A program made the position numbers and the translations under genes. A DNA stretch of 64,000 nucleotides from Candidatus Micrarchaeota archaeon (GTDB lineage Archaea; Micrarchaeota; Micrarchaeia; Anstonellales; Bilamarchaeaceae). Numbering within the stretch: the first letter of the stretch is position 1; the number at the start of each line of letters is the position of its first letter. The notes beneath the pieces were generated by a model. That model saw only the letters and a list, made by a program, of their open reading frames with translations, was not told the origin of the DNA and made no database searches. Location of the stretch: the NCBI GenBank assembly GCA_040753215.1, contig JBFMEZ010000025.1, positions 74,440 to 138,439 on the forward strand, in the 5' to 3' direction. Below, piece by piece: positions 3,782 to 63,650 of this stretch.

Positions 3782-4999
3782 CTATCCAGTTATAACGTAA
3801 TCCTGCTTCAAAAGGACCTTCTGCCCAGGGCGGAGGTTCCTCGTAACCGTAACCCCGCTCCCAACCCAGCAATCATTTCCAATAAGCTTTCCAGGCATCG
3901 TGCAACTAAGAACCCCGAACTTCACATTATCCCCAATCAGCGCCCCAAGCTTCTTCCTCCCGGAATTCACCCACCCCTTCTCCACAAGCACGACCACATT
4001 GCTAGCGTCAAACCTGTAATTTGCAACCTGTGTCCCCGAACCGAAATTAACCCCCTGCCCGACCACGCTATCCCCAATATACGATAAATGCTTCGCCTTC
4101 ACATCATCAAATAGAATACTGTTCTTCACCGTAGTGGATTCACCAATCTCGCAGTTCTTCCCAATTGAATTGAACCCTCTCAAAAGTGCATGAGGCCCAA
4201 TCCTGGTTCCGGCCCCGATATACGAAGCCCCCTCCACAAAGCTATCCACGACCTCCGCCCCCTCCTCCATTATCAGCTTCCCCTTCACAGTGGAATTCTC
4301 GACAGTCCCTGCGTTTGCCTCCATCTTATCCAAAAGATACTGATTCAAATCGAAAAGGTGCCACGGATACCCCACGTCCATCCAGAACTCCTCCGTCTCC
4401 ACCACGTGCGCGCCCTTCAGCACATCCGTAATCTCATACTCCCCCCGCGGTGAGGGCGCGAGTGCCCTGATCTCATCAAAAATCTTCTTATTGAACGCAT
4501 AAACAGAGATGTTCGCAAGGTTTCCCTTCGGGTGCTCCGGCTTCTCCTCCATGCCCACGAGCACCCCATCCTTCACTTCCGCAATCCCGTACCTCTGCGG
4601 CTCATCCACTTTTTTGAGCGCAACCGTCTTCTTCCCGTCATATTTCTCAATCACGTCCCTGTAAATCTCCGGGCTGCACACATTGTCCGCAGCCACCACC
4701 AGAAACTCCTCCACCGCCTTCTCCCTCGCATCATAAATCGCGGCAGCAGTCCCGTGCCTTTCCCCCTGCACCGCAAACTCAATCGCCATCCCCAAATTTT
4801 CTTCCTTCAAGTAATCGATAATCTGCTCCTTCCTGTACTTCACCACCACTACCGCTTCCTTCACCCCCGCATTCTTCAGATTGGACAGCACATTCCACAC
4901 AAGCGGCTTCCCGGCCACCTGCAGCATCGCCTTTGGCCGCGTATAGGTAAGGGGGCGCATCCGTTCGCCTTCCCCGCCCGCCAAAACGATTGCTTTCAA
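3782..4999 (-). CDS. Bifunctional sugar-1-phosphate nucleotidyltransferase / acetyltransferase (archaeal GlmU-like, UDP-GlcNAc synthesis)
   Basis: The N-terminal nucleotidyltransferase fold reads MKAIVLAGGEGERMRPLT. The C-terminus is a left-handed beta-helix hexapeptide-repeat domain. Confidence 0.75.
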   Translation of the reverse strand: MKAIVLAGGEGERMRPLTYTRPKAMLQVAGKPLVWNVLSNLKNAGVKEAVVVVKYRKEQIIDYLKEENLGMAIEFAVQGERHGTAAAIYDAREKAVEEFLVVAADNVCSPEIYRDVIEKYDGKKTVALKKVDEPQRYGIAEVKDGVLVGMEEKPEHPKGNLANISVYAFNKKIFDEIRALAPSPRGEYEITDVLKGAHVVETEEFWMDVGYPWHLFDLNQYLLDKMEANAGTVENSTVKGKLIMEEGAEVVDSFVEGASYIGAGTRIGPHALLRGFNSIGKNCEIGESTTVKNSILFDDVKAKHLSYIGDSVVGQGVNFGSGTQVANYRFDASNVVVLVEKGWVNSGRKKLGALIGDNVKFGVLSCTMPGKLIGNDCWVGSGVTVTRNLRPGQKVLLKQDYVITG

Positions 5000-8341: not shown

Positions 8342-8462
8342 GTTTCCAGTTTCCGTGTCTCTGCGGAGACAACTCCATGTTGCTTCGGCAACAACTGGCG
8401 AAGTTCTGCGGAACTTCACCATGGCAGAAACCCGCGGGTTTCCGCCATCGGGTTTCCAGTCA
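8341..8462 (+). repeat. Family A structured repeat (copy A1), flanked by GTTTCC heptamers
   Basis: A core of four consecutive hairpins: gtctctgcggagac, ttgcc-tc-ggcaa, gaagttc-tgcg-gaacttc, and atggcagaaacc...ggtttccgccat. It is near-identical to copies at 40809-40900 and 59453-59544. Confidence 0.8.
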
Positions 8463-9446: not shown

Positions 9447-9891
9447 ATTCTACACCAACAACCTCTTGGGTAATTCTTTTTATAAACATGCGCCGAATCC
9501 GTCCGGAATAATGCGGCAGAGAATAACACAACGGGCTTAAAACTCCCGCATCACCAGACTCCACATGGTTTCCAGACTTAGTTTCAGGTCAGAGGCAGAG
9601 CTAGGCAGGTATGTGGAACAGTAGCAGGGCAAGCTGGTCCCTGGTCGAAACGGCTTCAGGAAGATACTCGACCCCGAGGGCATGATAAGGGCCAACGTAA
9701 TACAGAATACGGACGGCTCCATCAGCGGGACCCAGTTTGCGACCCCGTTCCACACCCGGCGGGCATACGAAGAGAGAAAGGGCCATATCGGCCAGCCGGT
9801 GGAAAGGAGGGCTGGAGGGCTGCGCAGCGGATTCTGGCCGCAGGAGTGCATGCTGGATTAGAAGTTTCCGGTTTCCAGTTTTTTCTTATTC

Positions 9892-18268: not shown

Positions 18269-18361
18269 CTGTAATACCTCTATAATGTAACCATGGTTAC
18301 ATGCCAGTTTTCAGCTTCCGGTCTCCAGTTTCCAGAACGGGAAACCCGAAACAGGAAACCA

Positions 18362-21378: not shown

Positions 21379-22452
21379 ATGCATGGTTCTATCACAGCCA
21401 GCGCCAGAGTGGTGCCTTCCCGCAATAGGAGCCTTCGCGGCAGGCCTCCGCTTGAAAATGTGGTCGCCGCGATCCTAAAGCCGGCGGGCCGCACGAAAGA
21501 AGAGGTGGCTTCCGCAGAGCAGGAGCTAGTCCAGAGGCGGGATTCCGGCAATTTGGGTAAAATCCGGCTTTGCTTGGCAATAAGGGCGATGGGGGCTGAG
21601 CCCTGCGACGCAAAGAAGGGACGCCTCGGCACCATTGTCCCGGATCACCTCCCGGACAGGACATTTGCAGAAGCTTGGGAGATGGTCCTCAAAAATATCC
21701 GCCTCATCGGGAAGTTTCTCTCCAGAATTCAAAATTTGCTAAAGAAATGCAACATCCCTGAAAAAGACGCCGAGCAGATACTCACCGAAAACATGTTCTG
21801 GGCCGCGCTTTTCCACGACGGCTCGAGAGCCGCATTCTCCACATACGCCATGGAATGGTTCAAGAGGGGCCGCACGGGAATCGTTGCAGAAGCAGGCCTC
21901 ATCACATTCCCGCACCACATAGTCACAGAGATGATAATGTTGGAGCGGTTCCGCGACAGGCACCCCCTCATGCCAGCGCACAGGATTGCAGATTGCCTGG
22001 ATATGGCTCCTGTGCGCGTAGAGAGGCTTATGCGCCTCCGCGGGCTCCGCGAATCATCCATACGCCCCTTAAATGCAGATACGCTTTTCAATTCCGACAC
22101 CCCTACCTTCAGGATGCACGAAACCCCGGACGAAACCCGCGGGGTGGTGCCCATAACGAGCTTCCCGCATGATGTGGTCGAGAAGATGAGGCCGCACCAG
22201 GAAGACGCTATCCTCAGGGAACAGCTCGACCAGAGCATGCGCAACGCCCTGCTGGTCCTGACTCCAAGGGAATCGCGGGTCCTGAAGATGCGCTTTGGGT
22301 TTGGAACGGGGGAAGGTGACACCTTCGAAGAAGCCGCCCGAAAGATGAACGTAACCAGGGAACGCATCCGCCAGATAGAAGCCAAGGCGCTGCGCAAGCT
22401 GTGGCACCCATCGCGCAGGTCTTTGCACCATTTCTTAGAGGATGATGATTAA
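21379..22452 (+). CDS. Bacterial-type sigma-70 (RpoD-like) homolog with degenerate region 2 and near-canonical region 4.2
   Basis: The C-terminus LTPRESRVLKMRFGF...VTRERIRQIEAKALRKLWHPSRRSLHHFLEDDD matches RpoD region 4.2 and even its C-terminal FLDD ending. Region 2.4-3.0 reads FSTYAMEWFKRGRTGIVAEAGLITFPHHIVTEMIML (compare FSTYATWWIRQAITR...RIPVHMIETINKL in RpoD). Region 2.1 reads EMVLKNIRLIGKF (compare EMVEANLRLVISIA). The first ~100 aa are unrelated to sigma factors. Confidence 0.65.
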   Translation: MHGSITASARVVPSRNRSLRGRPPLENVVAAILKPAGRTKEEVASAEQELVQRRDSGNLGKIRLCLAIRAMGAEPCDAKKGRLGTIVPDHLPDRTFAEAWEMVLKNIRLIGKFLSRIQNLLKKCNIPEKDAEQILTENMFWAALFHDGSRAAFSTYAMEWFKRGRTGIVAEAGLITFPHHIVTEMIMLERFRDRHPLMPAHRIADCLDMAPVRVERLMRLRGLRESSIRPLNADTLFNSDTPTFRMHETPDETRGVVPITSFPHDVVEKMRPHQEDAILREQLDQSMRNALLVLTPRESRVLKMRFGFGTGEGDTFEEAARKMNVTRERIRQIEAKALRKLWHPSRRSLHHFLEDDD

Positions 22453-22507
22453 TCCTGCTTATTATGCAGGCAGGTAAATTGGCAGACAGCATACTGCTGA
22501 CAGCAAA

Positions 22508-22530
22508 TGCGGCCGCCGGGATTCGAACCC
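22508..22530 (-). other. Displaced 23-nt copy of the tRNA-Gly(TCC) 3' end (T-arm plus acceptor), an att-like duplication
   Basis: Identical to positions 23141-23163 of the intact tRNA. It is separated from the tRNA by the cdd cassette. Confidence 0.8.
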
Positions 22531-22534
22531 TCCC

Positions 22535-22629
22535 AAAAACGCGGAGGGGAGCGCCCCTCCCCATTTTTAGGGTTCATTCTGACCCTCCCCCAACTTCTCT
22601 TTGCAACCCTTTGCCAGTACTCCTTACGC
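22535..22629 (+). repeat. Family B repeat, copy B1
   Basis: It contains aaaacgcggaggggagcgcccctcccca (a near-palindromic hairpin), then ttctgaccctccccc, ctttgcaa, and ...actccttacgc. Nine other copies are present in the window. Confidence 0.8.
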
Positions 22630-22634
22630 AAGGT

Positions 22635-23024
22635 TCAATATGCCTTATCCCAAGGATATGGAAGCAGCTCCCTGAGTTTGGCTACTTTATTTTTTCCAAT
22701 AATAACTTCTGTATCCAGGTTTTCTTCACTAATCTGGCTCATGAACTCTCTGCACGCTCCACACGGAGGGATAATTCCATATTCCGAAACTGCCACTATT
22801 TTCTTTATTTTGTACTCCCCGTTCGTAACCATGGCAGCGATGGCACCCTGTTCTGCACAGAAACCCATGCCAGAGGCGGTGTCTATACTTACGCCCGAAT
22901 AAATAGTGCCTTTATTTGAAATTAGCGCACATCCAACATCCCCGATTGTGAATCCGTGTTTTATCTTTCTCGGCTTCAATATGGATTTGGCCTTCTCAAC
23001 CAGTTGCTCATCCGTTATTTGCAT
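22635..23024 (-). CDS. cdd: Cytidine deaminase
   Basis: The zinc-binding motifs CAEQGAI and PCGACREFM are present. The protein is ~129 aa, starting at MQITDEQL. The gene is markedly AT-rich (~40% GC) relative to its surroundings. Confidence 0.8.
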   Translation of the reverse strand: MQITDEQLVEKAKSILKPRKIKHGFTIGDVGCALISNKGTIYSGVSIDTASGMGFCAEQGAIAAMVTNGEYKIKKIVAVSEYGIIPPCGACREFMSQISEENLDTEVIIGKNKVAKLRELLPYPWDKAY

Positions 23025-23099
23025 GATTATTGCTCTTTCATCAAATTTTAAAGCCTTAATTCCACCGGTCTTTGACCAGCGGTAGTTCACAAACAAAGC

Positions 23100-23140
23100 A
23101 CGGATACCGAAAACCCAAAACGGGAAACAGGAAACTGTTT
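23100..23140 (-). terminator. T-rich GTTTCCN heptamer array immediately 3' of tRNA-Gly(TCC)
   Basis: On the transcribed strand it reads aaaacagtttcctgtttcccgttttgggttttcgg, with several oligo-T runs. An equivalent array follows tRNA-Gly(GCC) at 38521-38559. Confidence 0.5.
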
Positions 23141-23211
23141 TGCGGCCGCCGGGATTCGAACCCGGGTCGTTGGCTTGGAAGGCCAAAATCCTACCGCTAG
23201 ACTACGGCCGC
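23141..23211 (-). tRNA. tRNA-Gly (anticodon TCC)
   Basis: Cloverleaf: acceptor GCGGCCG/CGGCCGC, D-arm TAGTCTAGCGGTAGGA, anticodon stem ttggc/gccaa with loop cttCCaa, and T-arm GGGTTCGAATCCC. CCA is not encoded. Confidence 0.85.
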
Positions 23212-23287: not shown

Positions 23288-23334
23288 TCTGCATCGCTGC
23301 GGCGATGTCTGGCGAAGTTCTGCGGAACTTCACC
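23288..23334 (+). repeat. Family A repeat, partial copy A2
   Basis: It contains the gcatcgctgcggcgatg hairpin followed by tctggcgaagttctgcggaacttcacc. Confidence 0.6.
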
Positions 23335-23396
23335 ATCGCTCGGCGCAAAAAGGAGCCCAAAAACCTCAAGCTCCTTTACCTCATTTCTCTCTACGT

Positions 23397-34173: not shown

Positions 34174-35076
34174 CTATCCAACATACTCCCAGTACTGCTT
34201 CACGAAAACCGAGAACAGATACCGCACGAAATGCGCGCTCCGTTTCGAGTAGTCCACCTTCCGCAGCACAAGATAATAGAGCATTTTTTCTGCATCAAAT
34301 ATATTCAGCAGCGGATACCCGTTCCTCAGCAGCACCAAGTTCATGAGCAGCCTGGACATCCTTCCATTCCCGTCCCTGAACGGGTGTATGCGCACAAACT
34401 TGAGGTGCACGAGCGCCGCCAGCTCAAAGGGGTTCAGCTTCCCCTTCGCCTCCGAGTACCACCTGAAGAACTTTCCCATCAGCTCCGGCACCTCCTCGTG
34501 CCTCGGCGCAAAATAGCCTCCCACCCGCACATCCACATCCCTGTACCTGCCCGCATCCCGCATGGAACCATCCATCTGCATCCTGTGCAGCTTCAGCACC
34601 AGCTTCTCAGAAATATCTTCTCTGTTGCTGAAGAGGAAATCGACGCACTTCTTCATGTTCCTCGCTTCCCGCGCGTACTCCCCCTTTCCCTTCACTCTTC
34701 TCCCCAGCAGCGCCGCCTCCGTCTCCTCCAGCGTGAGCGTGCTTCCCTCAATCGCATTCGTGTTGTAGATGAAGCTTACCAGCCGCTCCCTCTCTTCCTT
34801 CCAGAGGTTCTTTCCTATCCTGTGCTTTTTCGAGTAATTTTTCCTTATTTTTTCCAGCACCTCCGTTTCCTCTTCTGAAAGAATGGGCTTCGGGCGCTCC
34901 CGCCTCGGCTTCTCAAAGCCGGCCGGCGTATGCACGCCGAGGTATTTCCGCACCTTCTTCGTCTTCTCCCCAACTCTCTTCGTCTCCGTAAGATAGTAGT
35001 AAGTCTTTCCCGCGATTTTTTTCTTCTCTATGTATCCCGCCATACATACATTTAGGGGGCACGCCATTTTAAACAT
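34174..35076 (-). CDS. Fic family protein (AMPylase-type Fic/Doc domain)
   Basis: The Fic motif HPFRDGNGRMSRLL is present. The start is uncertain: MACPL or MAGYIEKK. Confidence 0.8.
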   Translation of the reverse strand: MFKMACPLNVCMAGYIEKKKIAGKTYYYLTETKRVGEKTKKVRKYLGVHTPAGFEKPRRERPKPILSEEETEVLEKIRKNYSKKHRIGKNLWKEERERLVSFIYNTNAIEGSTLTLEETEAALLGRRVKGKGEYAREARNMKKCVDFLFSNREDISEKLVLKLHRMQMDGSMRDAGRYRDVDVRVGGYFAPRHEEVPELMGKFFRWYSEAKGKLNPFELAALVHLKFVRIHPFRDGNGRMSRLLMNLVLLRNGYPLLNIFDAEKMLYYLVLRKVDYSKRSAHFVRYLFSVFVKQYWEYVG

Positions 35077-35214
35077 TTAGGGGGCACAGTTCCAGTTTCC
35101 TGTATCCGGTTTTCAGTTTCGATTGCTTTATGGCTATGCTTTCCATTTTTGTAGTCCCATCCAATCGGGAAAGTGGAGACTGAAAACCTGTTGCTGGAAA
35201 CCGAAGACTGATTT

Positions 35215-35238
35215 AGCCCCGGAGGGGGATTGAACCCC
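35215..35238 (-). other. Displaced 24-nt copy of the tRNA-Thr 3' end (T-arm plus acceptor)
   Basis: Matches positions 35871-35894 of the intact gene. It is followed directly by B-family copy B4 (35241-35333). Confidence 0.75.
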
Positions 35239-35240
35239 TC

Positions 35241-35333
35241 CAAGAAGAAGGGGGAAGGCGTTCCCCCCTCTCTTTAGGGTAATCATACCCCCCTTCCACT
35301 TCACTTCGTCACTCTTTGCACGTGCTCCTTACG
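35241..35333 (+). repeat. Family B repeat, copy B4
   Basis: Reads aagaagaagggggaaggcgttcccccctctctttagggtaatcata...cttcacttcgtcactctttgcacgtgctccttacgc. Confidence 0.75.
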
Positions 35334-35375
35334 CCCGACCGAAAGAGATTAAATCCACGCCCCAGAACATCTCGT

Positions 35376-35867
35376 ATGCAGATAATCATAAGGAAAGCCC
35401 GCCCGGGCGACATCGAACTGCTCGCGCCCATGTGGAGGGAACTCACCAATTACCATACTATTCTCGCAGCCAGAAATCCGGCAAGAAAAGAGTTTACCGC
35501 AATGGTCGGAAACGCAGAATCACTATGGAGAAAGTGGATTCTGAAATGGATTCGCTCGCCCAACGGGCTCGTGCTGATAGCGGAGCATGCCGGCAAGCCA
35601 GTCGGTTATTCCTTCAATTTCATCAAGAAATCCAATCCGGTGTATCGCGTAAATAAGATGGGCTGCATGAGCGACCTTTACGTCGCACCCGGCTACCGCA
35701 ATAAAGGAATTTCCTCACGATTCAGGGACGAAGCATTCAAGTGGTTCAGAAAGAAGGGCTTGAGGCACGCTTGCATAGGCGCCCACGGCTCCAACAAAAG
35801 AGCCCTGAGCATTTATCGGAAATGGGGTTTCTTCGACTTCTCAGTTGATCTAAGAAAGAGGATATAA
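35376..35867 (+). CDS. GNAT family N-acetyltransferase (cassette cargo)
   Basis: Acetyl-CoA binding motif region GYRNKGISSRF. The protein is ~163 aa starting at MQIIIRKARPGD. Confidence 0.7.
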   Translation: MQIIIRKARPGDIELLAPMWRELTNYHTILAARNPARKEFTAMVGNAESLWRKWILKWIRSPNGLVLIAEHAGKPVGYSFNFIKKSNPVYRVNKMGCMSDLYVAPGYRNKGISSRFRDEAFKWFRKKGLRHACIGAHGSNKRALSIYRKWGFFDFSVDLRKRI

Positions 35868-35870
35868 CCA

Positions 35871-36078
35871 AGCCCCGGAGGGGGATTGAACCCCCGACCT
35901 CTCGCTGTCCCGTTTCCGGTTTCCGCATCTCTGCGGAGATGACTCCGCTTCTCTGCGGAGAAGACTGGCAGAATCCTTCGGGATTCCGCCATGGCAGAAA
36001 CCTGCTGGTTTCCGCCATCCTGTTTCCAGTTCCGAACCGGATTACGAGGCGAGCGCTCTACCGCTGAGCTACCGAGGC
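35871..36078 (-). tRNA. tRNA-Thr (anticodon CGT) with ~136-nt intron (about 35906-36041) in the anticodon loop at or near position 37/38
   Basis: Exon 1 reads GCCTCGGTAGCTCAGCGGTAGAGCGCTCGCCTCGTAA and exon 2 reads GCGAGAGGTCGGGGGTTCAATCCCCCTCCGGGGCT. The anticodon stem is ctcgc/gcgag with loop ctCGTaa. The intron contains a family-A repeat copy. Confidence 0.7.
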
Positions 36079-36080
36079 GC

Positions 36081-36174
36081 AAAGAGGAAGGGGGAAGCGT
36101 TCCCCCTTCTCTTTAGCGTAATCATAACTCCCTTCAACTTTGCTTAGGGGATGCTTTGCTCGTACTCCTTACGC
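36081..36174 (+). repeat. Family B repeat, copy B5, directly upstream of the tRNA-Thr 5' end
   Basis: Reads aaagaggaagggggaagcgttcccccttctctttagcgtaatcataac...ctttgctcgtactccttacgc. Confidence 0.75.
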
Positions 36175-36304
36175 ATTTCTTTGCTCCCCAACTTTTATTA
36201 AATTGAGGAGAACGCCAGGAGCAGGATTTGAACCTGCAATCCCTTGCGGGACTCGTTTTCGAGACGAGCGCGTTCACCGGGCTCCGCCATCCTGGCAGCA
36301 ATTA

Positions 36305-36982
36305 TTATACTCCGCTTATTTTCTTAAACCTGATTGCATCCTCGCCCATAGTAATGTTGTTGAAGAATACGTACTCCGCTCCCCTCGTTTTCTTTGCAAT
36401 TTCCTTTAGCTCCGCATCGCTGAATGTATAATAATACATCATCCTTTCTCCCAATCCGTGCAATCTGTAATACCCAATTTTCCGATGAAAACTCTCCTGC
36501 CTCAAAGGGTCCACAATATGCTCCAGCTCTAGTTCTTCAAATAGGGGCTCCGCAATCTCCCGTGTCCAGTCCTTGCTCCATCTCACCTCCCACCCCAGCC
36601 TAAACTCTTCCCGCTTAATCTTCCCGAAGAATTTCCTCGCCCTCGCAATATTCTCCTTCGTAGGCTTAAATGAAGCAGGAGATTGGAAAACCAGAAAGTC
36701 CGCCCTCAACAATTCCGCAACTTTCTTCGTCTCCCAAAATGCCTTCACCGATTCCGCTCCTCTAAACCTGTCAAAATGCGTCACAGTTCGCAAAACCTTC
36801 AGCGTAAACTCAAACTCCGGATTCACCGAATCCGCCTTCGCCCTCCACTTCTCCGCGGTCTTCAGCATAGGCAGTTTATAGAAGGTGGAATTCACCTCCA
36901 CCGCAGGAAATGCATGCACATAATTCAGCAGCCTGTCTCCCCTCTCAGGAAAAGAAGACCATCCGCAGGTTCCTATTTTCAT
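36305..36982 (-). CDS. DUF72 family protein
   Basis: The N-terminus reads MKIGTCGWS and a YRLHG motif is present. Confidence 0.7.
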   Translation of the reverse strand: MKIGTCGWSSFPERGDRLLNYVHAFPAVEVNSTFYKLPMLKTAEKWRAKADSVNPEFEFTLKVLRTVTHFDRFRGAESVKAFWETKKVAELLRADFLVFQSPASFKPTKENIARARKFFGKIKREEFRLGWEVRWSKDWTREIAEPLFEELELEHIVDPLRQESFHRKIGYYRLHGLGERMMYYYTFSDAELKEIAKKTRGAEYVFFNNITMGEDAIRFKKISGV

Positions 36983-36987
36983 AGCAC

Positions 36988-37494
36988 TCACAAGAATTTG
37001 CTCATCACGCACACATCCTTGCCGCCCCAGTGCTTCCTCAGCCTCGCCTCTTCCTTATAACCCCTGCTCTTATAGAATTTGTACGCATTAATCGTGGGCA
37101 AAGTCCAAAGATAAATCTTCACGCACTTGTTCTTTCTCGCCATCTCCTCGCACTTTTCCAGCAATTCCGTGCCTATCCCGCTTCTCCTGCGTCCCTTCGC
37201 AACAGCAAAAGCGCCCACGCTAGCGACCTTCCTCCCCACACGCAGCGAAATCGCCCCGACTATCCTGCCCCCTTCCTTGGCGGATAAAAAGTACCTTTTT
37301 TCCTTATTAGAAAATGTCTTGTAATAATCCGCCCCGGCCTTGGGCCCGAAGAAATCCATGAAAAAGCCCTTCATCTCCCTGCCTACGAATTTTCTGTACG
37401 CCTTTTTGGAAACAGGAGCTATTCTCATGCTGGGCTTACGAAGCCAAAGGCTAAAAATCAGATTGCGGTTCCGGGTAGTCCACGCCCGCCGCAA
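36988..37494 (-). CDS. GNAT family N-acetyltransferase
   Basis: The acetyltransferase fold shows in AFAVAKGRRRSGIGTELL. The start is uncertain. Confidence 0.65.
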   Translation of the reverse strand: MRRAWTTRNRNLIFSLWLRKPSMRIAPVSKKAYRKFVGREMKGFFMDFFGPKAGADYYKTFSNKEKRYFLSAKEGGRIVGAISLRVGRKVASVGAFAVAKGRRRSGIGTELLEKCEEMARKNKCVKIYLWTLPTINAYKFYKSRGYKEEARLRKHWGGKDVCVMSKFL

Positions 37495-37549
37495 TTCCCT
37501 ATTGTGTCATATTATGTATTTTTATATTCTATCAGGCATAAATCAACTA

Positions 37550-38533
37550 ATGGGCGATTATGTTTCCCGCAATGCCAATCCTGTCCTTAAGAGCATAGCG
37601 CCGGTTGTCGAACGTTCGGTGCATGTCCGGATAGACTGGGACCGGTTAAAGCAATTTGCCAGCCGGTTCATGGAAGGCAACATAAGGCACTGGGTGGCAG
37701 CCTCCCACGTCGACCTCTCAGGCATGGGCGCCGATGAGAAACTAGCTTTCCTATTCGTCTTCAATTCGATCAGCTTCAGCTACTGGGGCAGCCCGAAATG
37801 GTCGGTTCCGCTCGAGGGCGTGCCCCAGCGCGGAACCCTCTACATGCTCCACTGCCTGCGCAGGGCGGTGGCCGAAGGGAAGCCCATCCTGAACCCAGAC
37901 TACCTCGCCACAATCCGCAGGGAGGAACTCGCGGAAATCCTGAAAGGAACCCCTGAAATCCCTCTTCTCGACGCGCGCAACAATATACTCCGGCAGCTGG
38001 GCAGCGTGACCGCCACCGGCTGGGGCGGCAAATTTTCAAATTACCTGGAAGCCGCATGTGGGGATGCGGTGGACCTCCTACTGGTCATTGAACACGCCCT
38101 GCCGTCTTTCTGGGATGAGCCATGTTACGGAAATGATGGCGTGAGGGTTTTCTTCTACAAGCGCGCCCAGCTTCTGGTTTCAGATATCCATGCAGTATTC
38201 AACGGCGAGGGATACGGTGATTTAGTGCGCACCGAAAAACTGACCGCATGCGCCGACTATATTCTCCCCATGGTTCTCAGGCACCATGGCATACTCGTGT
38301 ACAGCCCTGTTCTCGCGGATGTTGTCGATAACGGAGTTGAGGTCAAAAACGGCAGCGATGAAGAAATCGAGATAAGGGCCAACACCGTATTTGCGGTAGA
38401 ACTGCTAAAGAGCGAGCTTCTTGGGAGGTTTCCGGGCATAACCTCCATGCAACTGAACGATTATCTCTGGCTCTCAAGAACAAGGCTTCCAGAAGGCGTG
38501 AAACATCATCTCACAAGGACAACTGCCTACTGA
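37550..38533 (+). CDS. DUF2419 / Qng1-like protein (queuosine 5'-phosphate N-glycosylase/hydrolase family)
   Basis: Several segments align to human C9orf64/QNG1: VFFYKRAQLLVSDIHAVFNGEGYGD, ADYILPMVLRHHGILVYS, EEIEIRANTVFAVELLK, and LNDYLW. A TATA-like TTTTTATATT lies about 25 nt upstream of the MGDYV start. Confidence 0.65.
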   Translation: MGDYVSRNANPVLKSIAPVVERSVHVRIDWDRLKQFASRFMEGNIRHWVAASHVDLSGMGADEKLAFLFVFNSISFSYWGSPKWSVPLEGVPQRGTLYMLHCLRRAVAEGKPILNPDYLATIRREELAEILKGTPEIPLLDARNNILRQLGSVTATGWGGKFSNYLEAACGDAVDLLLVIEHALPSFWDEPCYGNDGVRVFFYKRAQLLVSDIHAVFNGEGYGDLVRTEKLTACADYILPMVLRHHGILVYSPVLADVVDNGVEVKNGSDEEIEIRANTVFAVELLKSELLGRFPGITSMQLNDYLWLSRTRLPEGVKHHLTRTTAY

Positions 38534-38559
38534 AACTGGAAACCGAGAACTGGATGCTG
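38521..38559 (-). terminator. T-rich heptamer array 3' of tRNA-Gly(GCC)
   Basis: The transcribed strand reads aaatcagttttcagcatccagttctcggtttccagtttca. Confidence 0.45.
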
Positions 38560-38630
38560 AAAACTGATTTGCGGCCGCCGGGATTTGAACCCGGGTCGCC
38601 AGATTGGCAATCTGGAATCCTACCGCTAGA
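38560..38630 (-). tRNA. tRNA-Gly (anticodon GCC)
   Basis: Reads GCGGCCGTAGTCTAGCGGTAGGATTCCAGATTGCCAATCTGGCGACCCGGGTTCAAATCCCGGCGGCCGCA. The anticodon stem is ccaga/tctgg with loop ttGCCaa. Confidence 0.85.
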
Positions 38631-38633
38631 CTA

Positions 38634-38768
38634 CGGCCGCTCCAAGAGGAAGGGGGAGCGCCCCCTTCTCTCTAGGGTACTCATAACCCCCCATCAATTG
38701 CGGGGCTGTGAATTCATTCTGACCCCCTCCCACTTCACTTTGCAATGCTTTACTCGTACTCCTTACGC
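38634..38768 (+). repeat. Family B repeat, copy B6 (long form), upstream of tRNA-Gly(GCC)
   Basis: Reads aagaggaagggggagcgcccccttctctctagggtactcataa...cattctgaccccctcccacttcactttgcaatgctttactcgtactccttacgc. Confidence 0.75.
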
Positions 38769-38853
38769 ATAGGGGCGTGCATCTCTTCTAACCGAAGAGC
38801 ATTCCTATTTTCCAATAAAACCTTTTATTAACTTTCTTGCAGCAATTTGCTCC

Positions 38854-40790: not shown

Positions 40791-40808
40791 CCAGTCCCCC
40801 GTTTCCAC

Positions 40809-40900
40809 ATCGCTTCGCGATGACTCCATGTTGCCTCGGCAACAACTGGCGAAGTTCTGCGGAACTTCACCATGGCAGAAACCTTCCGGGTTTCCGCCAT
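40809..40900 (+). repeat. Family A repeat, copy A4, overlapping the 5' end of the PHP gene
   Basis: Reads atcgcttcgcgatgactccatgttgcctcggcaacaactggcgaagttctgcggaacttcaccatggcagaaaccttccgggtttccgccat. Confidence 0.8.
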
Positions 40901-41538
40901 CCAGTTTCCCGAAGCTAAACATTGACTTCCACGTGCACACCTCCTTCTCTTCGGATGGAAGGATAAAATTAGCTGAACTCGCCTCCCTTTCCAAACAATT
41001 CGGAATAATCCCCGCCCTCACCGACCACAACAACATGGATGCCTGCTCCCCCTTCAAAAAATTCGAAATCCCCTTCATCCCCGGAGAGGAAATCCGCGTT
41101 GCACAGGGCGATTTCATAGGCCTCTTCCTCTCCGAGCCGATTCCTGAAGGGATAGATTTCTACGAAGCCCTCGACTTAATCCGTGCGCAGGGAGCCCTCG
41201 CTTATGTCCCGCACATGTTCGACGCACTCCGCCCCGGAGTAGTAAAGGAGGAATACGGAAAAGCCGCAGACATAATAGAAGTATTCAACGCCCGCTCCTT
41301 CGCCCGCTTCGACAGGCAGGCAGAAGAATTCGCCAAAAGGGAAGGCAAATTAATGGCGGCAGGAAGCGACGCCCACTTCCCGTTCGAATTCGGGCACACT
41401 TATACCGAATTAAGCCTCACCCCAGACCAACTGGAACCCAAATCTCTTCTCCGCGCTTTAAAGAATGCGAGAATAGCAGGAAAGCGCACTTCTTTTCTCA
41501 AGAGGAAAATAGCGAAATATACCGGAATCTACATCTAA
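40828..41538 (+). CDS. PHP-domain phosphoesterase; the only in-frame ATG lies inside repeat A4
   Basis: The PHP motif begins at LNIDFHVHTSFSSDG, with a later GSDAH motif. No ATG/GTG/TTG lies between the repeat and the first His motif. The annotated N-terminus MLPRQQLAKFCGTSPWQKPSGFPPSSFPK is therefore repeat-encoded. Confidence 0.6.
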   Translation: MLPRQQLAKFCGTSPWQKPSGFPPSSFPKLNIDFHVHTSFSSDGRIKLAELASLSKQFGIIPALTDHNNMDACSPFKKFEIPFIPGEEIRVAQGDFIGLFLSEPIPEGIDFYEALDLIRAQGALAYVPHMFDALRPGVVKEEYGKAADIIEVFNARSFARFDRQAEEFAKREGKLMAAGSDAHFPFEFGHTYTELSLTPDQLEPKSLLRALKNARIAGKRTSFLKRKIAKYTGIYI

Positions 41539-43816: not shown

Positions 43817-43920
43817 CCAGGGAAGATATCCGCAGATTTGCAGCCTCAGATTGTCGGTTATGGAAGGAAAAAATCCGCAAAAGTTTCCTTCCATGTTAGA
43901 CGCCTTATAGCATCGTTTTT

Positions 43921-44122
43921 CACTGAACCTCCACGGCTCGGTCACACCTTGTAGTCGCCTGCGTGGCGGCGATAGGTCTGCCTAGCCATTGGGTGCGGCT
44001 ACAAGGTGTGAGGAAGCCTCGGCATTTATGCCGGGGAGGAGAGCCGAGGCTTCCTCTAAAGGCAGCAGGAATACATCTGCCCTTTATCTACGAAGAAGCC
44101 ACGGCCTTTAGTGGAGGTTCAC
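43921..44122 (+). repeat. Family C ~200-nt structured repeat, copy C1
   Basis: 99% identical to 46120-46325. The ends (cactgaacctccac...gtggaggttcac) are inverted-repeat-like and can pair. It has internal hairpins (gaggaagcctcggc/gccgaggcttcctc and caccttgtag/ctacaaggtg). Confidence 0.8.
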
Positions 44123-44186: not shown

Positions 44187-44882
44187 CTATTTTTCTCCAA
44201 CCACAATCGCAAAATTAGCTAAAGGTGGCACCAGCACCCGTGTTTTTCTGAACCCAAACCCATCCATAATCTTCTTCAGCTCAAGTGGGCAGATAGGGTA
44301 TTCCTTCGGATGCTTTTCCTGGTACTCCTTGCTCATGCCTTTCAGCGCCTGCGCCCAGCTCCGGTCGAATTCTCTTGCCCTTTTTGGATTCTTCTTTCTT
44401 AATCTCCAAACTTTTTCCTTATACTCGCTACTGGGCTTAAACCAGTCCCCTATCACCAGTCTTCCGCCTTCACGAAGAGACTTCCGTATCCGGGAAATAA
44501 CAGCCGCCTTATTCTTCACGTGATGAAAAGCGAGGTTGGAAACCACATAATCTGCACGCCCGCCGAACCCCTCTATCGGAGAAGCTTTGAATTTCATATT
44601 CTTAATTCCAGCAACCCTAACCTTCCCCATTGCTACCTTCATCATGCCTTTGGAAACATCCACGCAAGTTACCTGCGCCTTCGGCTTCCTCTCCGCAAGC
44701 CTTATGGCAAGCCCTCCACTCCCGGCTCCCAGGTCCGCCACCCTGCATTTCCGGTCCGGAACCTCCCTTATTATGTTGTCCACAAGCCATCTGTAAAACA
44801 AGTATTGGTACCTGTCCTGCTCTTCGTACTCTTTCGCGTATTTATCGAAGAACTCCTTTGCCTTTTTCACAATCAAAACCAC
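44187..44882 (-). CDS. Class I SAM-dependent methyltransferase
   Basis: SAM motif I reads VADLGAGSGGLAI. The start is a GTG that overlaps the stop of the displaced fen-1 tail. Confidence 0.75.
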   Translation of the reverse strand: MVLIVKKAKEFFDKYAKEYEEQDRYQYLFYRWLVDNIIREVPDRKCRVADLGAGSGGLAIRLAERKPKAQVTCVDVSKGMMKVAMGKVRVAGIKNMKFKASPIEGFGGRADYVVSNLAFHHVKNKAAVISRIRKSLREGGRLVIGDWFKPSSEYKEKVWRLRKKNPKRAREFDRSWAQALKGMSKEYQEKHPKEYPICPLELKKIMDGFGFRKTRVLVPPLANFAIVVGEK

Positions 44883-44945
44883 TTATCCAAAGTCCGCTGG
44901 CTCCGCGTCTCCTTCACGTTGCTCATCATCCCTTCCAGCGCCTTC
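44876..44945 (-). other. Displaced duplicate of the fen-1 3' end (last 22 codons, ending in a canonical PIP box)
   Basis: It encodes ALEGMMSNVKETRSQRTLDKWF*. The current gene end is EGMLSNVKETRSQRTLDKWL*. Nucleotide identity over 70 bp is about 70%. Confidence 0.75.
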
Positions 44946-44951
44946 TCCCGG

Positions 44952-45020
44952 AAAAACGCGGGGAACCCAGGTTCCCCCCATTTTTACCGTTTATTCTGAC
45001 CCCCTCCTAACGGTTTTCAG
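44952..45020 (+). repeat. Family B repeat, short copy B7, lying between fen-1 and its displaced 3' end
   Basis: Reads aaaaacgcggggaacccaggttccccccatttttaccgtttattctgaccccctcc. Confidence 0.7.
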
Positions 45021-46054
45021 AGCCACTTATCCAATGTTCGTTGGCTTCTTGTTTCTTTTACATTGCTTAGCATTCCCTCTAAAGCTCTTTCTACCCTCTC
45101 CCTTGAGAAATCGTGCTCCTCCACCAACAATTCTATTACTCCCTCCCTGCTCGCCTTCCCCCACCCCAGCTCTCCGACCTCCTTCACTGGCGGGCTCATG
45201 AAAAAACCGAAAATCGCCTCCACATCCTCAGGAAACTCATATCCCTTCTCCTTCTTCAAATATGCCCTCACCTTCTCCAGCGTATCATTCTCTTTCACAA
45301 TCTTCAGACCGGTTTTCGGCCCAATCCCCCGCACCCCTTCATTGAAATCCGTTCCCACAAGAATCCCAATCAAAATCAATTGCTCCCTCTTCAGCCCAAG
45401 CGCCTTCAGCGTCTCTTCCAGCTCCACCCTCTCAATCTCTATATCTATGAACCTATTCTGCTTCGGCACCTTCCTTTTCCCGGTAATGGACAAATTCCTC
45501 AAAAGCACCGGCGACCCAAATAGAACCGAATCATAATCCTGCGATGCGGCCGCATAGCAAAGCCCTGTCCCCACCATCCACGCTGCCTGCGCCTCCCCTT
45601 CAGAGGGCGCCTGCACCCAGGGAATCCCCATCAGTGAAAGCAGCCTCTTCCCCTCATCCACCATCTCCTTGGTGAGCCGCGAGCTTGCCTGCGCATATTT
45701 CCTCGCCTCCTCAATTTTCTCCTCCGCAAGCGCCTTCTTCCATTTGTGCTCCGCCTCCCTCCGCACCTCTATCCTTTCCTCTATAGTTTTCCTCTTGAAT
45801 TCCGGCGGAGGCCCGTCAAACACATAAATAGGTTTTATCCCAGCATTCACCAATCTTATGCTCCTGTAAAATAGCCCAGATAAATGCCCGGTCACCCGCC
45901 CCTTCATATCCATTAAGGGCGTCCCGTCCTCCTGCCTTATGGAAGCCAAAAATTGATAGAGTATATTCATCCCATCTATCGCTATGCTCTTTCCCGCAAG
46001 CTCCTCCAGCTCGACCTTGTGCTTAATTGCAAGGTCGCCCAAATCTACTCCCAT
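45017..46054 (-). CDS. fen: Flap endonuclease 1
   Basis: The XPG-N and XPG-I motifs and the N-terminal sequence MGVDLGDLAIKHKVELEELAGKSIAIDGMNILYQFL are present. The C-terminal PIP-like box reads QRTLDKWL. Confidence 0.9.
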   Translation of the reverse strand: MGVDLGDLAIKHKVELEELAGKSIAIDGMNILYQFLASIRQEDGTPLMDMKGRVTGHLSGLFYRSIRLVNAGIKPIYVFDGPPPEFKRKTIEERIEVRREAEHKWKKALAEEKIEEARKYAQASSRLTKEMVDEGKRLLSLMGIPWVQAPSEGEAQAAWMVGTGLCYAAASQDYDSVLFGSPVLLRNLSITGKRKVPKQNRFIDIEIERVELEETLKALGLKREQLILIGILVGTDFNEGVRGIGPKTGLKIVKENDTLEKVRAYLKKEKGYEFPEDVEAIFGFFMSPPVKEVGELGWGKASREGVIELLVEEHDFSRERVERALEGMLSNVKETRSQRTLDKWL

Positions 46055-46119
46055 CCTAATCCTCGCTTACCTATAATCAGGCATACTTTTATTTCTCTGC
46101 CTGCCGCAGCCGGCAGACT

Positions 46120-46325
46120 CACTGAACCTCCACGGCTCGGTCACACCTTGTAGTCGCCTGCGTGGCGGCGATAGGTCTGCCTAGCCATTGGGTGCGGCTA
46201 CAAGGTGTGAGGAAGCCTCGGCATTTATGCCGGAGAGGAGAGCCGAGGCTTCCTCTAAAGGCAGCAGGAATACATCTGCCCTTTATCTACGAAGAAGCCA
46301 CGGCCTTTAGGCCGTGGAGGGTCAC
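46120..46325 (+). repeat. Family C repeat, copy C2
   Basis: See copy C1. This copy ends in the perfect hairpin gccacggcc-ttta-ggccgtggag. Confidence 0.8.
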
Positions 46326-49467: not shown

Positions 49468-49782
49468 GTGAAGAAAATGGAGGAAAGATTGGAGGAGTTT
49501 GAGGAAATAGAGGAGCCAAAAAAGGGGAGAAAGCCAAGTTCTGATGAGTCCGAATCCGCACCGAGCGAAAGCGTTGGCGCGAGGCCGGACTTCCGCGTGG
49601 TCCAGACCGAAAGGGATGCGGAGGGCAAGACAATATACAAGAACGTGGGTGGGCTCTGGAAGCGCACGAGCAAGAATGGAAACACATACTACAGCATGAG
49701 CATAGGCCGATTGAGGCTGCTCGTATTCCCTAACGACAGGGATGGTGGTTCTTATGGCAGAGAAGACAGAGAAGAAATATGA
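49468..49782 (+). CDS. Hypothetical acidic/basic small protein
   Basis: 104-aa ORF with a strong Shine-Dalgarno-like sequence (aaaaggtgaag) about 8 nt upstream. Confidence 0.4.
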   Translation: MKKMEERLEEFEEIEEPKKGRKPSSDESESAPSESVGARPDFRVVQTERDAEGKTIYKNVGGLWKRTSKNGNTYYSMSIGRLRLLVFPNDRDGGSYGREDREEI

Positions 49783-58487: not shown

Positions 58488-58882
58488 TTCTTCTCTTCCT
58501 TCTCCGGCCCTTTTTTGGATGCCTCCTTCCCTTTTTCCGGCGCTTCCTTCCCGTGCGCCTCTTTCGGGGCTTCCTCGGGCTCCTTCCCCTTTTTCTCTTC
58601 CTTCTTCGCCTCCTTCTTTTCCTCCGGCTTCTCGTCTATGAGGTAGGCCCTCACAACCCCCGCCTCCTTCACAGCCCTCATCTTCACCTTCCTGGGCGGC
58701 TTCTGCATCCCCCTCCGGAAAAGCAGCTCATTCGCCTTTTCGCTTATCTTCACGTCCTCCGCCTTCATGTGCCTTGAGAGGAATGAGCGCACGATCTTAA
58801 CGGCCCTCCTTGCCCTCCTCACCCTGGAGTAATCGTACGCCTTTCCCAGTGGTATCGTATAAATCCTTTCAAGCTCAGCCAT
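58484..58882 (-). CDS. rpl31e: Ribosomal protein L31e with Lys/Glu-rich C-terminal extension
   Basis: The protein begins MAELERIYTIPLGKAYDYSRVRRARRAVKIVRSFL and continues ...VKISEKANELLF. The tail is KEAKKEEKKGKEPEE.... Confidence 0.8.
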   Translation of the reverse strand: MAELERIYTIPLGKAYDYSRVRRARRAVKIVRSFLSRHMKAEDVKISEKANELLFRRGMQKPPRKVKMRAVKEAGVVRAYLIDEKPEEKKEAKKEEKKGKEPEEAPKEAHGKEAPEKGKEASKKGPEKEEKK

Positions 58883-58888
58883 GCTCTC

Positions 58889-58978
58889 ACTCCTCCCTAA
58901 AACGCGGAGGGGAGCGCCCCTCCCCATTTTGAGGGTTCATTCTGACCCTCCCCCATCTCCCCTTTCCATTGCTTTGCA
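58889..58978 (+). repeat. Family B repeat, copy B9, inserted between rpl39e and rpl31e and flanked by a 15-bp direct duplication (catgctctcactcct)
   Basis: The duplicates at 58870-58884 and 58977-58991 contain the rpl31e RBS/ATG and the rpl39e stop region respectively. Confidence 0.75.
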
Positions 58979-58983
58979 TGCTC

Positions 58984-59142
58984 TCACTCCTTAATCCTCA
59001 GCTTGCTGGTCCTCCATTCCCTTCTCCTGTTGTTCCAGAGGACCTTCCTTTTGGTCCTCACGGTGACGAATATCGGCATCCTCCTGTTCTGCCTGCCCGC
59101 CTTCGCGAGCCTTCTCTTTTTCAGTCCGCTCTTCTTTCCCAT
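58984..59142 (-). CDS. rpl39e: Ribosomal protein L39e
   Basis: Translates to MGKKSGLKKRRLAKAGRQNRRMPIFVTVRTKRKVLWNNRRREWRTSKLRIKE. It is below the ORF-track cutoff. Confidence 0.75.
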   Translation of the reverse strand: MGKKSGLKKRRLAKAGRQNRRMPIFVTVRTKRKVLWNNRRREWRTSKLRIKE

Positions 59143-59433: not shown

Positions 59434-59452
59434 ATAAGTCCCCAGTTTCTAT

Positions 59453-59544
59453 ATCGCTTCGCGATAACTCCATGTTGCCTCGGCAACAACTGGCGAAGTT
59501 CTGCGGAACTTCACCATGGCAGAAACCCCCCGGGTTTCCGCCAT
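59453..59544 (+). repeat. Family A repeat, copy A5 (between rps19e and the PDCD5-like gene)
   Basis: Reads atcgcttcgcgataactccatgttgcctcggcaacaactggcgaagttctgcggaacttcaccatggcagaaaccccccgggtttccgccat. Confidence 0.8.
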
Positions 59545-59570
59545 CCGGTTCCCAGTCCCCGGTTCCGCGC

Positions 59571-63537: not shown

Positions 63538-63650
63538 AAAACGCGGAGGGGGGCGCCCCTCCTCATTTTTTCCTGGATGGTGAAATTCCGCAGAATTTCG
63601 CCAGACATCGCCGCAGCGATGCAGATTTTCTGATCCTCCCCCCACTTCAC
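63538..63650 (+). repeat. Family B repeat (copy B10) with a nested inverted partial family A copy (A6, 63579-63624)
   Basis: Reads aaaacgcggaggggggcgcccctcctca, then rc(tggcgaagttctgcggaacttcacc...), then cctccccccacttcac. It is flanked by ttttcctc-containing direct repeats. Confidence 0.7.

Follow-up and report, generated by a model that had tools for sequence, protein, structure and literature searches.

In a 64,000-nucleotide stretch of the genome of a Candidatus Micrarchaeota archaeon (contig JBFMEZ010000025.1, positions 74,440 to 138,439, GenBank assembly GCA_040753215.1; referred to in the following as the window), a threonine tRNA gene, tRNA-Thr(CGU), is followed by a GNAT acetyltransferase gene, a structured repeat of about 95 nucleotides (nt) that we call B, and a displaced copy of the 3' end of the same tRNA gene. 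Comparison with relatives shows that the insertion at tRNA-Thr is real and that the locus is recurrent and recently polymorphic, with B as a clade-specific end element not described before. That the layout recurs points to a previously undescribed way of swapping single genes; the process operates throughout one Micrarchaeota clade, the tRNA-Thr cassette being one instance. On a narrow balance of probability, we attribute it to insertion-duplication by a unit that has B as its fixed end and a copy of the target as its variable end. The survey covered the 64-kb window and 8-kb pieces of contigs from relatives (labelled L001 etc.). L012 is from the metagenome-assembled genome (MAG) DeMMO3_23, L099 is from AlinenSediments bin-2471, and L132 and L133 are a metagenome pair.

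The inserted piece comprises 632 bases (35239–35870) immediately 3' of tRNA-Thr(CGU) and consists of the GNAT gene, a short A/T-rich, promoter-like spacer and a B copy, B4 (Table 1). Read on the minus strand, the order is tRNA-Ser (36212–36297), another B copy (B5), tRNA-Thr(CGU), a 3-nt spacer, GNAT on the opposite strand, an A/T box, B4, the 24-nt tRNA copy, a GTTTCC-type motif, the Fic gene and Gins51. The 3' terminus of B4 (...CTTCTTGGA) is joined to the displaced tRNA fragment. The repeated 24-mer, GGGGTTCAATCCCCCTCCGGGGCT, has two exact sites in the window, both on the same strand (35215–35238 and 35871–35894), and no further site with three or fewer mismatches; the repeat appeared in none of 100 dinucleotide shuffles, and zero were expected by chance. 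The displaced fragment reported in a preliminary description of this DNA is thus genuine, and the positions given there for tRNA-Thr, GNAT, B4 and the fragment all hold. The same GNAT gene (84–88% amino acid identity) is found in L001, L045 and L132 with an identical junction, CT/TGG/stop codon (TCA or TTA). The A/T box is a possible bidirectional promoter element. GNAT lies antisense to tRNA-Thr and B, whereas the cytidine deaminase gene (cdd) of a sister cassette in the window is co-oriented with its own tRNA and B. The GC content of cdd (0.44) and GNAT (0.50), compared with 0.55 for the window and 0.56–0.57 for core genes, fits import of the cargo.

Table 1. Features of the tRNA-Thr locus and of related B insertions in the window.
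Feature	Position	Strand	Details
B5 repeat	36079..36178	-	nhmmer E=1.7e-24; directly abuts tRNA-Thr 5' end
tRNA-Thr(CGU) 5' exon, gene positions 1-36	36043..36078	-	Rfam 46 bits; ARAGORN with introns; equals 5' part of intronless L012 tRNA-Thr
tRNA-Thr intron, 136 nt	35907..36042	-	canonical anticodon-loop position; core 35912-36030 = family A repeat
tRNA-Thr(CGU) 3' exon	35871..35906	-	last 24 nt (35871-35894) = direct-repeat copy 1; 100% over 36 nt to L012 and L132
Spacer TGG, 3 nt	35868..35870	-	between tRNA 3' end and GNAT stop codon; cassette left edge
GNAT gene, 163 aa, cargo	35376..35867	+	Pfam PF00583 Acetyltransf_1, 44.6 bits vs cut-off 20.7, E=2e-11
A/T box GATTTAATC	35347..35355	.	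between GNAT and B4; conserved in L001, L132
B4 repeat	35239..35338	-	nhmmer match 35241-35335, E=1.5e-25
Displaced tRNA-Thr 3' fragment	35215..35238	-	24-nt repeat copy 2; T-stem, T-loop, 3' acceptor strand, discriminator (positions ~50-73)
Flank following tRNA-Thr in empty-site relatives	34174..35214	-	GTTTCC-type motif, Fic promoter region, Fic gene 34174-35076 (Pfam Fic); 81% nt identity to L012, L099
Sister cassette	22507..23211	-	tRNA-Gly(UCC) 23141-23211, GTTTCC motif + cdd 22635-23024, B 22534-22633, 23-nt tRNA-Gly fragment 22507-22529
B insertion at FEN1 3' end	44873..45091	-	AT-richer copy of last 24 codons 45017-45091, 5'-truncated B ~44948-45016, native copy 44873-44947
B insertion between L39e and L31e	58882..58993	-	15-nt AGGAGTGAGAGCATG at 58979-58993 and 58882-58896; 82 nt 5'-truncated B (58897-58978) between

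Empty sites in relatives mark the piece as an insertion. In L012 and L099, B is followed by an intronless tRNA-Thr(CGU) gene and then directly by the AATCAG/GTTTCC flank, the Fic promoter and Fic (86–87% amino acid identity). In the window, the same flank comes after the tRNA fragment and not after the intact tRNA. The flanks of L132 and L133 are 94.8–98.5% identical over 1.4 and 3.1 kb. L132 has GNAT, B and a tRNA fragment of 35–36 nt, whereas L133, an empty site, has none of these; there the tRNA leads straight into the flank that in L132 comes after the fragment. The presence of the cassette in one and its absence from the other show that it is polymorphic between very close genomes and was recently gained or lost. 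GNAT itself has diverged among the window, L001 and L132 about as much as neighboring core genes (Gins51, 87–91% amino acid identity), so the cassette is old; it has been repeatedly lost or regained and is not a fresh arrival in the window.

The interval between tRNA-Thr and Gins51 contains Fic in L012; Fic and B in L099; Fic, a tRNA fragment and a gene for a 229-aa secreted protein in L130; the secreted-protein gene alone in L083, L105, L128, L129, L131 and L134; GNAT, B and the secreted-protein gene in L001; and GNAT, B, the fragment and Fic in the window. In L001, the 3' end of B contains the stop codon of the secreted-protein gene (9806–9812, opposite strand), without any remaining tRNA fragment; here B appears to have replaced the original end of that gene. 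The fragment beside the same GNAT cassette measures 35–36 nt in L132, 24 nt in the window and nothing in L001, which looks like progressive loss from the B end. Such a series would be expected if B were a normal tRNA 5' leader and two B–tRNA-Thr units had once stood around GNAT, with the second tRNA then partly deleted, and in 23 cases, tRNA-Thr included, B does indeed adjoin an intact tRNA at its 5' end. Nevertheless, we consider this kind of tandem duplication and decay quite unlikely. Every deletion would need to have started exactly at the intact 3' terminus of B, in at least six independent cases; two complete copies were present in none of the genomes examined; and neither the homeologous protein-gene ends behind B nor the L39e/L31e insertion, both described below, would be explained.

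The layout is not confined to tRNA-Thr. The sister cassette at tRNA-Gly(UCC) has the same order of tRNA, gene (cdd), B and displaced 3' fragment, in this case of 23 nt. In L051 and L062, tRNA-Gly(UCC) is followed by TTTGCTTT and the SecD promoter; the tRNA-Gly fragment in the window is followed by TTTGCT, the same bases as after the intact tRNA in these two relatives. The parallel that the preliminary description drew between the two cassettes is therefore sound: both are true insertions at tRNA genes (empty sites in L012, L099 and L133), and the layout recurs elsewhere. The common backbone for which it proposed a search was not found, as B is all that the GNAT and cdd cassettes share. The cdd homologues that we fetched (L124–L126) are without B; in L126, a distant, B-less Micrarchaeota contig, a cytidine deaminase gene (3861–4381) is located 66 nt downstream of tRNA-Gln. 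Between tRNA-Gly(UCC) and SecD, the window has not only the cdd cassette but also a gene (21379–22452, plus strand) for a protein of 357 aa that contains a Sigma-70 region 4 domain of bacterial type (E=4e-17), in an archaeal genome. This gene is flanked by the tRNA-Gly fragment and SecD; the corresponding stretch in L051 and L062 measures only about 60 nt, and the gene looks like another one inserted at the same hotspot.

When all tRNAs in B-bearing loci were scanned for extra copies of tRNA ends, five loci were found, both window cassettes included. L084 has tRNA-Thr(GGU), 47 nt, B and a repeat of 17–18 nt, while the orthologous locus in L022 has tRNA-Thr(GGU), a small Cys-rich open reading frame (ORF), B and an 18-nt repeat. 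A near-identical B is all that the two inserts have in common, and each fragment shows the tRNA substitutions of its own genome. L088 (3590–3945) consists of a broken tRNA-Thr 5' half (to approximately position 35), an antisense B, 23 nt, a complete tRNA-Thr(UGU), 18 nt, a sense B and the matching T-arm/acceptor piece. An inverted B pair with a complete tRNA gene thus lies within a second tRNA gene, superficially like a split-tRNA or giant-intron layout, with positions ~35–49 missing. The starting point of the repeats is the T-stem/T-loop in the window, L084, L022 and L088, and position 38/39, directly behind the anticodon loop, in L132.

B insertions with flanking duplications were also found at the ends of protein genes. 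Direct repeats of at least 11 nt, starting 1–7 nt after the 3' end of B, occurred at 12 of the 59 B copies with an intact 3' end, compared with 32 of 1870 random positions, and the other copy of such repeats lay just upstream of the insert. One insertion in the window separates L39e from L31e, a junction that in L135, L136 and L138 has a 4-nt spacer and no B. Another is at the 3' end of FEN1, where the copy of the gene end in front of B encodes ERALEGMLSNVKETRSQRTLDKWL and the copy behind B encodes EKALEGMMSNVKETRSQRTLDKWF, each followed by a stop codon, with 21 of 24 residues identical. It is the copy behind B that is native, given its overlap with the start codon of the following gene. In L019, the gene ends on both sides of B encode LQEEIVKAATMRKFLG followed by a stop codon, and beyond a 13-nt identical patch, they differ only synonymously or in the stop codon. 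The same peptide with mainly silent differences indicates that the two copies at FEN1 and in L019 evolved separately under selection, and the copy in front of B was therefore imported together with B from a related genome. A diversity-generating retroelement was considered as the source of the FEN1 duplicate and rejected, as the differences are mostly synonymous and, judged by eye, not adenine-specific. Overall, the flanking repeats of B insertions are unrelated sequences (tRNA-Thr, tRNA-Gly, the L39e/L31e junction, FEN1 and others) with lengths from 13 to at least 59 nt. Since B and the duplication occur at protein-gene ends as well, the process is not tRNA-specific and is wider than the targeting of tRNA genes proposed in the preliminary description.

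The homeologous copies mean that no staggered-cut target duplication took place at L019 and FEN1, and they constitute an insertion-duplication signature; staggered cutting is ruled out as a general mechanism. This bears directly on the idea that B is a non-autonomous transposon or retroposon-like element making long, variable target duplications via widely staggered cuts, with upstream DNA as its cargo. Such an element would account for the intact 3' end and frequent 5' truncation of B, the variable flanking repeats (at least 13 to 59 nt), the exact 15-nt duplication at L39e/L31e, and L088, where the inverted B pair in the broken tRNA-Thr shows a target deletion and not a duplication. It would not account for the L019 and FEN1 copies, whose synonymous differences with the peptide kept are not obtainable by copying one target. 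Moreover, B lacks terminal inverted repeats and does not occur in IMG/VR contigs, and no transposase, Cas1 or reverse transcriptase was seen among the scanned window ORFs. We regard this explanation as very unlikely.

The fixed element in all of these cases is B itself. An alignment of 41 full copies from several MAGs shows an almost invariant 5' end, GCGTAAGGAGTRCG, followed by a GTGAAGT motif, a purine tract, a small hairpin (GGGTATGATTACCC or GGTCAGAATGACACC), a terminal hairpin of ~15 bp and a 3' tail, either CTCTTGG or CGTTTTTGG. RNAalifold gave nine pairs for the terminal hairpin, and seven of these show compensatory double changes. The purine strand of the terminal hairpin is mirrored, in 27 of 37 copies, by the purine tract that precedes the small hairpin, with interrupting A residues that co-vary in mirror order (e.g., 35239–35300 and 22534–22590); in six copies, the tract repeats it directly. 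This suggests, as a lead only, that B may form an intramolecular purine–purine–pyrimidine triplex. The last ~51 nt of B4 are almost identical to copies from four other MAGs, and one variant of this ~51-nt 3' module is identical or one base different in five MAGs in which Gins51 is down to 70% identical. Orthologous B copies upstream of tRNA-Thr have different 3' modules in different genomes, which suggests module exchange or gene conversion among B copies. Composite or nested copies were also observed (window 38641–38772; L001 10610–10742; L133 1531–1594; L099 1386–1540), in which a type-1 front is joined to a type-2 hairpin, or additional hairpins are found inside.

The junction is always at the 3' end of B, while the 5' end is often truncated. 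Among the 59 intact 3' ends in the position census, 23 are 2–5 nt before a co-oriented tRNA (Gly-UCC, Gly-GCC, Thr-CGU, Asn or Ser), nine are within 5 nt of a convergent tRNA 3' end, to which two cases seen by eye can be added (L006 and L090), and seven continue into tRNA fragments; most of the others continue into protein-gene ends. Half of the tRNAs in the sampled B-bearing loci (32 of 64) touch a B. All nine B copies that nhmmer detected in the window are on the minus strand. The position of B5, 5' of tRNA-Thr, is occupied by a B copy in every relative examined, and in the window, a TATA-like box, TTTAATAAAAG, is found ~20 nt upstream of B5. In a species-representative genome collection, the 5' motif GCGTAAGGAGYRCNNNYRAAG matched many Micrarchaeota or "Iainarchaeum" MAG contigs; bacterial matches were single chance matches that nhmmer did not confirm as B. 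Seven matches to the 5' motif in IMG/VR viral contigs were likewise not B by nhmmer, and B was not found there. Rfam 15, searched at both gathering and E-value thresholds, has no family for B (best match sRNA-Xcc1, 21.8 bits against a gathering threshold of 53, E=0.59), and no description of a Micrarchaeota tRNA-associated repeat such as B was found in the literature. B is a Micrarchaeota-specific structured repeat.

A role for B as an RNA was weighed in several forms. A C/D-box or H/ACA sRNA or a small ORF was rejected, as the 41-copy alignment has no conserved boxes, start codon or reading frame, and so was a tRNA-like or minihelix RNA made of B and the fragment, since B4 with its fragment folds only marginally better than shuffles (z=-2.0) and has no 5' acceptor partner. 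More generally, B and the fragment could together be a small RNA with an end generated by tRNA-processing enzymes, or else supply the 3' piece of a split tRNA. The A/T box upstream of B4, the L132 fragment, which is an exact tRNA 3' half from position 38/39, and the L084 and L022 fragments, which track the lineage-specific substitutions of their own tRNAs, can all be read in this way, as can L088, where a 5' half with an antisense B and a T-arm piece with a sense B resemble a split-tRNA layout. However, the window has an intact tRNA-Thr(CGU), and its 24-nt fragment lacks the 3' strand of the anticodon stem and the 5' acceptor strand, leaving no cloverleaf or minihelix; L001 keeps GNAT and B with no fragment; the L088 pieces are without positions ~35–49; and the predicted fold of B4 and fragment is the weak one given above. 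We find a functional RNA hardly credible as the explanation.

No recombination machinery was detected near the cassettes. A Pfam scan of 28 window ORFs gave no integrase or transposase, Phage_integrase, Cas1 or reverse transcriptase domain, and tblastn with one integrase (from L125) gave no match. The active, or recently active, integration machinery proposed in the preliminary description is therefore borne out in its recency, by gain or loss of the cassette between flanks of ~95–98.5% identity, but not by any machinery found in these searches. GNAT, the spacer and B account for the entire 632-bp cassette, leaving no room for an integrase fragment. Tyrosine integrases usually cross over in the T-loop or the anticodon loop of tRNA genes. 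The cassettes might accordingly be remnants or non-autonomous derivatives of tyrosine-integrase elements, with the crossover in one of these loops, the tRNA 3' part carried beside B as attP, and the integrase acting in trans or deleted. The starts of the repeats agree with this classical site-specific integration, as do the empty sites and the varying gene combinations between tRNA-Thr and Gins51, which resemble a tandem integration hotspot. A regenerated tRNA with a displaced 3' fragment is the standard island signature according to the Islander description (PMC4383910), and a recombinase-bearing element is known at a polymorphic tRNA-Thr locus of Caldiarchaeum (PMC3293823). Against it are the missing integrase, the variable repeat length (13 to at least 59 nt) and the occurrence of the same layout at unrelated protein-gene ends without a common core sequence, which one sequence-specific integrase would not be expected to serve. 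We consider site-specific integration somewhat unlikely, while giving it serious weight.

In the insertion-duplication that we favor, the unit would have the 3' terminus of B as its fixed end and a copy of the last 13–75 nt of its target, a tRNA or protein gene, as its variable end. Whatever the donor had between target and B would be the cargo, which could be GNAT, cdd, a small ORF or nothing at all. Integration would proceed by recombination within the short shared segment, most simply by a Campbell-type single crossover of a circle, such that the target gene is made whole by the incoming copy, and its resident 3' end comes to lie behind B as a non-functional remnant. If the direct repeats later recombined with each other, the cassette could be deleted precisely and the empty site restored. 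For the GNAT unit, the expected circular or tandem junction is the B 3' end followed by GGGGTTCAATCCCCCTCCGGGGCT and then TGGTTATATCC. The catalyst may be host homologous recombination or a recombinase encoded elsewhere, and B may mark where the unit ends, perhaps by means of its hairpin and possible triplex. Extending this, we tentatively suggest, as a doubtful but real possibility, that B is the cis-acting end of a non-autonomous archaeal mobile unit of an undescribed class that is copied or excised from the 3' terminus of B back to a variable point in the upstream gene, takes with it the 3' part of the latter along with any single gene between, and integrates into related genomes via the short homeologous segment, with the possible hairpin-plus-triplex structure of B setting its boundary.

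Several points weigh against insertion-duplication. Shared segments of 13–24 nt are short for ordinary homologous recombination, and no circular form or excision junction was seen. The repeat copies of the tRNA cassettes are identical, and import is extrapolated there from the protein-gene cases; the starting points of the repeats, in the T-stem/T-loop or after the anticodon loop, are also produced by tyrosine integrases. With the window and the 8-kb pieces covered, a recombinase could be present elsewhere in the genomes. The Fic cassette of L130 has a displaced tRNA-Thr fragment of ~29 nt without B, and B is therefore a frequent but not an obligatory partner of such insertions. Finally, the location of B 3' ends at tRNA borders in both orientations (0–5 nt) is explained neither by insertion-duplication nor by the integrase model. 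A preference at the DNA level for acceptor-stem sequence would look alike in both orientations, because the first seven bases of a tRNA are the reverse complement of its last seven paired bases.

The intron of the tRNA-Thr gene looks like a second insertion. Rfam RF00005 matched the gene (35871–36078, minus strand) over model positions 1–71 with 46 bits against a threshold of 29 and placed a 138-nt insertion in the anticodon loop; ARAGORN missed the gene by default and recovered it in intron mode, with a 136-nt intron after position 37. The two exons joined (36043–36078 and 35871–35906) equal the 72-nt intronless tRNA-Thr of L012 exactly. In the minimum-free-energy fold of the precursor (z=-7.1), a cloverleaf is formed, and the exon–intron borders have a 3-nt bulge (ACA), a 5-bp helix and a 2-nt bulge, which is predicted to be a relaxed, bulge-helix-bulge-like motif. 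A Micrarchaeum endonuclease with broad substrate specificity has been reported (PMC3488258). The intron core is a copy of a dispersed repeat, family A, of ~120 nt with multiple hairpins, GGAAAC motifs at its flanks and fold z-scores of about -4 to -7. Further copies are at 8342–8460, 40793–40911 and 59437–59555, with partial copies at 23296–23339, 63575–63620 and 263–305; besides the tRNA-Thr intron core, the family is found in intergenic DNA and inside two B copies. Orthologous tRNA-Thr genes have no intron, 42 nt of GGAAAC motifs only (L001) or an unrelated intron of 56 nt (L105 and L133), and for this reason, the window intron looks like a recent insertion of the dispersed repeat at the canonical splice position.

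Other genes come and go beside tRNAs in these genomes. The interval between tRNA-Gly(GCC) and tRNA-Ser is ~55–65 nt in L012, L045 and L133, whereas L132 has a queuosine-salvage gene there (3587–4732, versus L133 1855–1914), and the window (36305–38533) has a queuosine-salvage gene, a second GNAT and DUF72. The queuosine-salvage gene was thus gained or lost directly 3' of a tRNA between ~97% identical genomes, with no recognizable tRNA fragment or B. Runs of GTTTCC-like heptamers (12–13 copies in families D1/D3) follow tRNA and many protein genes, often opposite inverted GGAAAC runs (e.g., 23100–23140, 35184–35210, 38529–38569, 1634–1669, 5207–5263 and 18306–18341), and the left part of the cdd, Fic and Q_salvage insertions consists of them too; their function may be as terminators or as sites to which proteins bind. 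On either side of the FEN1 and methyltransferase genes are two 99%-identical 192-nt copies (43920–44111 and 46119–46310, minus strand), whose RNA fold is closed by a 10-bp helix (z=-5.9); the other strand gave a sub-threshold Rfam match to HgcC (19.8 bits, E=0.012). This repeat is possibly a structured RNA gene present twice. A RadA/Rad51 recombinase gene (49742–52252, plus strand) contains an intein with a LAGLIDADG homing-endonuclease domain. By ORF translation and Pfam, the window proteins include archaeal L44e, S27e, L39e, L31e, Gins51 and threonyl-tRNA synthetase; an exact-sequence database look-up of the window GNAT and of P0004 returned no record. Identical database entries exist for the cytidine deaminase and L31e of the window and carry the label Candidatus Micrarchaeota.

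DPANN archaea have tiny genomes whose gene gain and loss are poorly understood. Here, single genes for an acetyltransferase, a cytidine deaminase, Fic and queuosine salvage come and go beside tRNA genes, even at ~97% genome identity. If units do move from one related genome to another with their own copy of the target end, they would provide a minimal gene-exchange route with no linked integrase: homology-addressed exchange of single genes in ultra-small DPANN genomes, with tRNA and other conserved gene ends as common addresses. This would tie in with the long-standing view that mobile DNA drives the disruption of tRNA genes, their gain of introns and the origin of split tRNAs in Archaea, and B with a tRNA fragment would serve as an annotation marker for recently exchanged genes in these lineages.

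Several known systems resemble this one in part. IS91/ISCR elements and Helitrons are one-ended rolling-circle elements. Like the B units, they have one fixed end with a subterminal GC-rich hairpin and a short tail (CTTGG here), a variable other end and captured upstream genes; unlike them, the B units have no Rep/HUH gene that we could find, and the rolling-circle elements make no duplication and carry no target copy. For miniature inverted-repeat and DDE transposons, the comparison shows unrelated ends of B (5' GCGTAAGGAGTRCG, 3' …CTCTTGG) and repeats of 13 to at least 59 nt that are partly homeologous; for casposons, which make target duplications of 14–15 bp, no terminal inverted repeats, a variable repeat length and no Cas1 among the window ORFs scanned. 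Relative to split tRNAs of the Nanoarchaeum/Caldivirga type, the window fragment has only positions ~50–73, with an intact gene 630 nt away, and L088 has a complementary B pair with positions ~35–49 missing. In Campbell-type insertion-duplication, a circle carries an internal gene fragment, and CIMEs are att-bounded elements without an integrase of their own. Both share with the B units a segment duplicated on either side, a non-autonomous nature and the possibility of precise removal via direct repeats. To our knowledge, such small natural archaeal units, with shared segments of 13–75 nt and a dedicated, conserved end element, have not been described. Integron gene cassettes (ORF plus attC) are reported also in Archaea (PMC9668308). 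The likeness lies in single promoter-poor or promoterless genes, in either orientation, followed by a hairpin-forming element of ~60–140 nt in which pairing is conserved and sequence variable. In contrast, the cassettes here are single, located at tRNA or gene ends and flanked by duplicated target sequence, with no array, attI or IntI and no integrase among the window ORFs. B lacks the R''/L''-L'/R' symmetry of attC and its GTTRRRY box; the 41 copies show one 3' hairpin and no GTTRRRY/RYYYAAC pair.

The closest general parallel in layout is with tRNA-gene islands of tyrosine integrases, in which, following the Islander account (PMC4383910), the insertion splits off the 3' part of the tRNA, the incoming DNA restores the gene and the displaced 3' fragment comes to lie at the far end, with empty sites in relatives and hotspots of differing gene content. 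The 24-nt repeat with an intact tRNA and the empty sites in L012, L099 and L133 conform to this picture; a linked integrase (window ORFs, tblastn) and a single specific attP/attB core were not found. Further differences are the size, 80–680 bp with no or one gene and no integrase in or near, the conserved, structured B at the far end, and the additional insertions at protein-gene ends with homeologous replacement copies. In Caldiarchaeum subterraneum, a 1.8-kb recombinase-encoding element is located at a polymorphic tRNA-Thr(GGU) locus (Sugahara et al. 2012, PMC3293823). There, the displaced piece is a 5' fragment and the element has its own recombinase, whereas here we find a 3' fragment, a cassette without recombinase and an intron made of a dispersed multi-hairpin repeat. 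Both are archaeal tRNA-Thr loci that are heterogeneous in the population, with tRNA fragments beside an inserted element and intron gain at the locus, and the Caldiarchaeum tRNA-Thr(GGU) locus is the nearest archaeal precedent.

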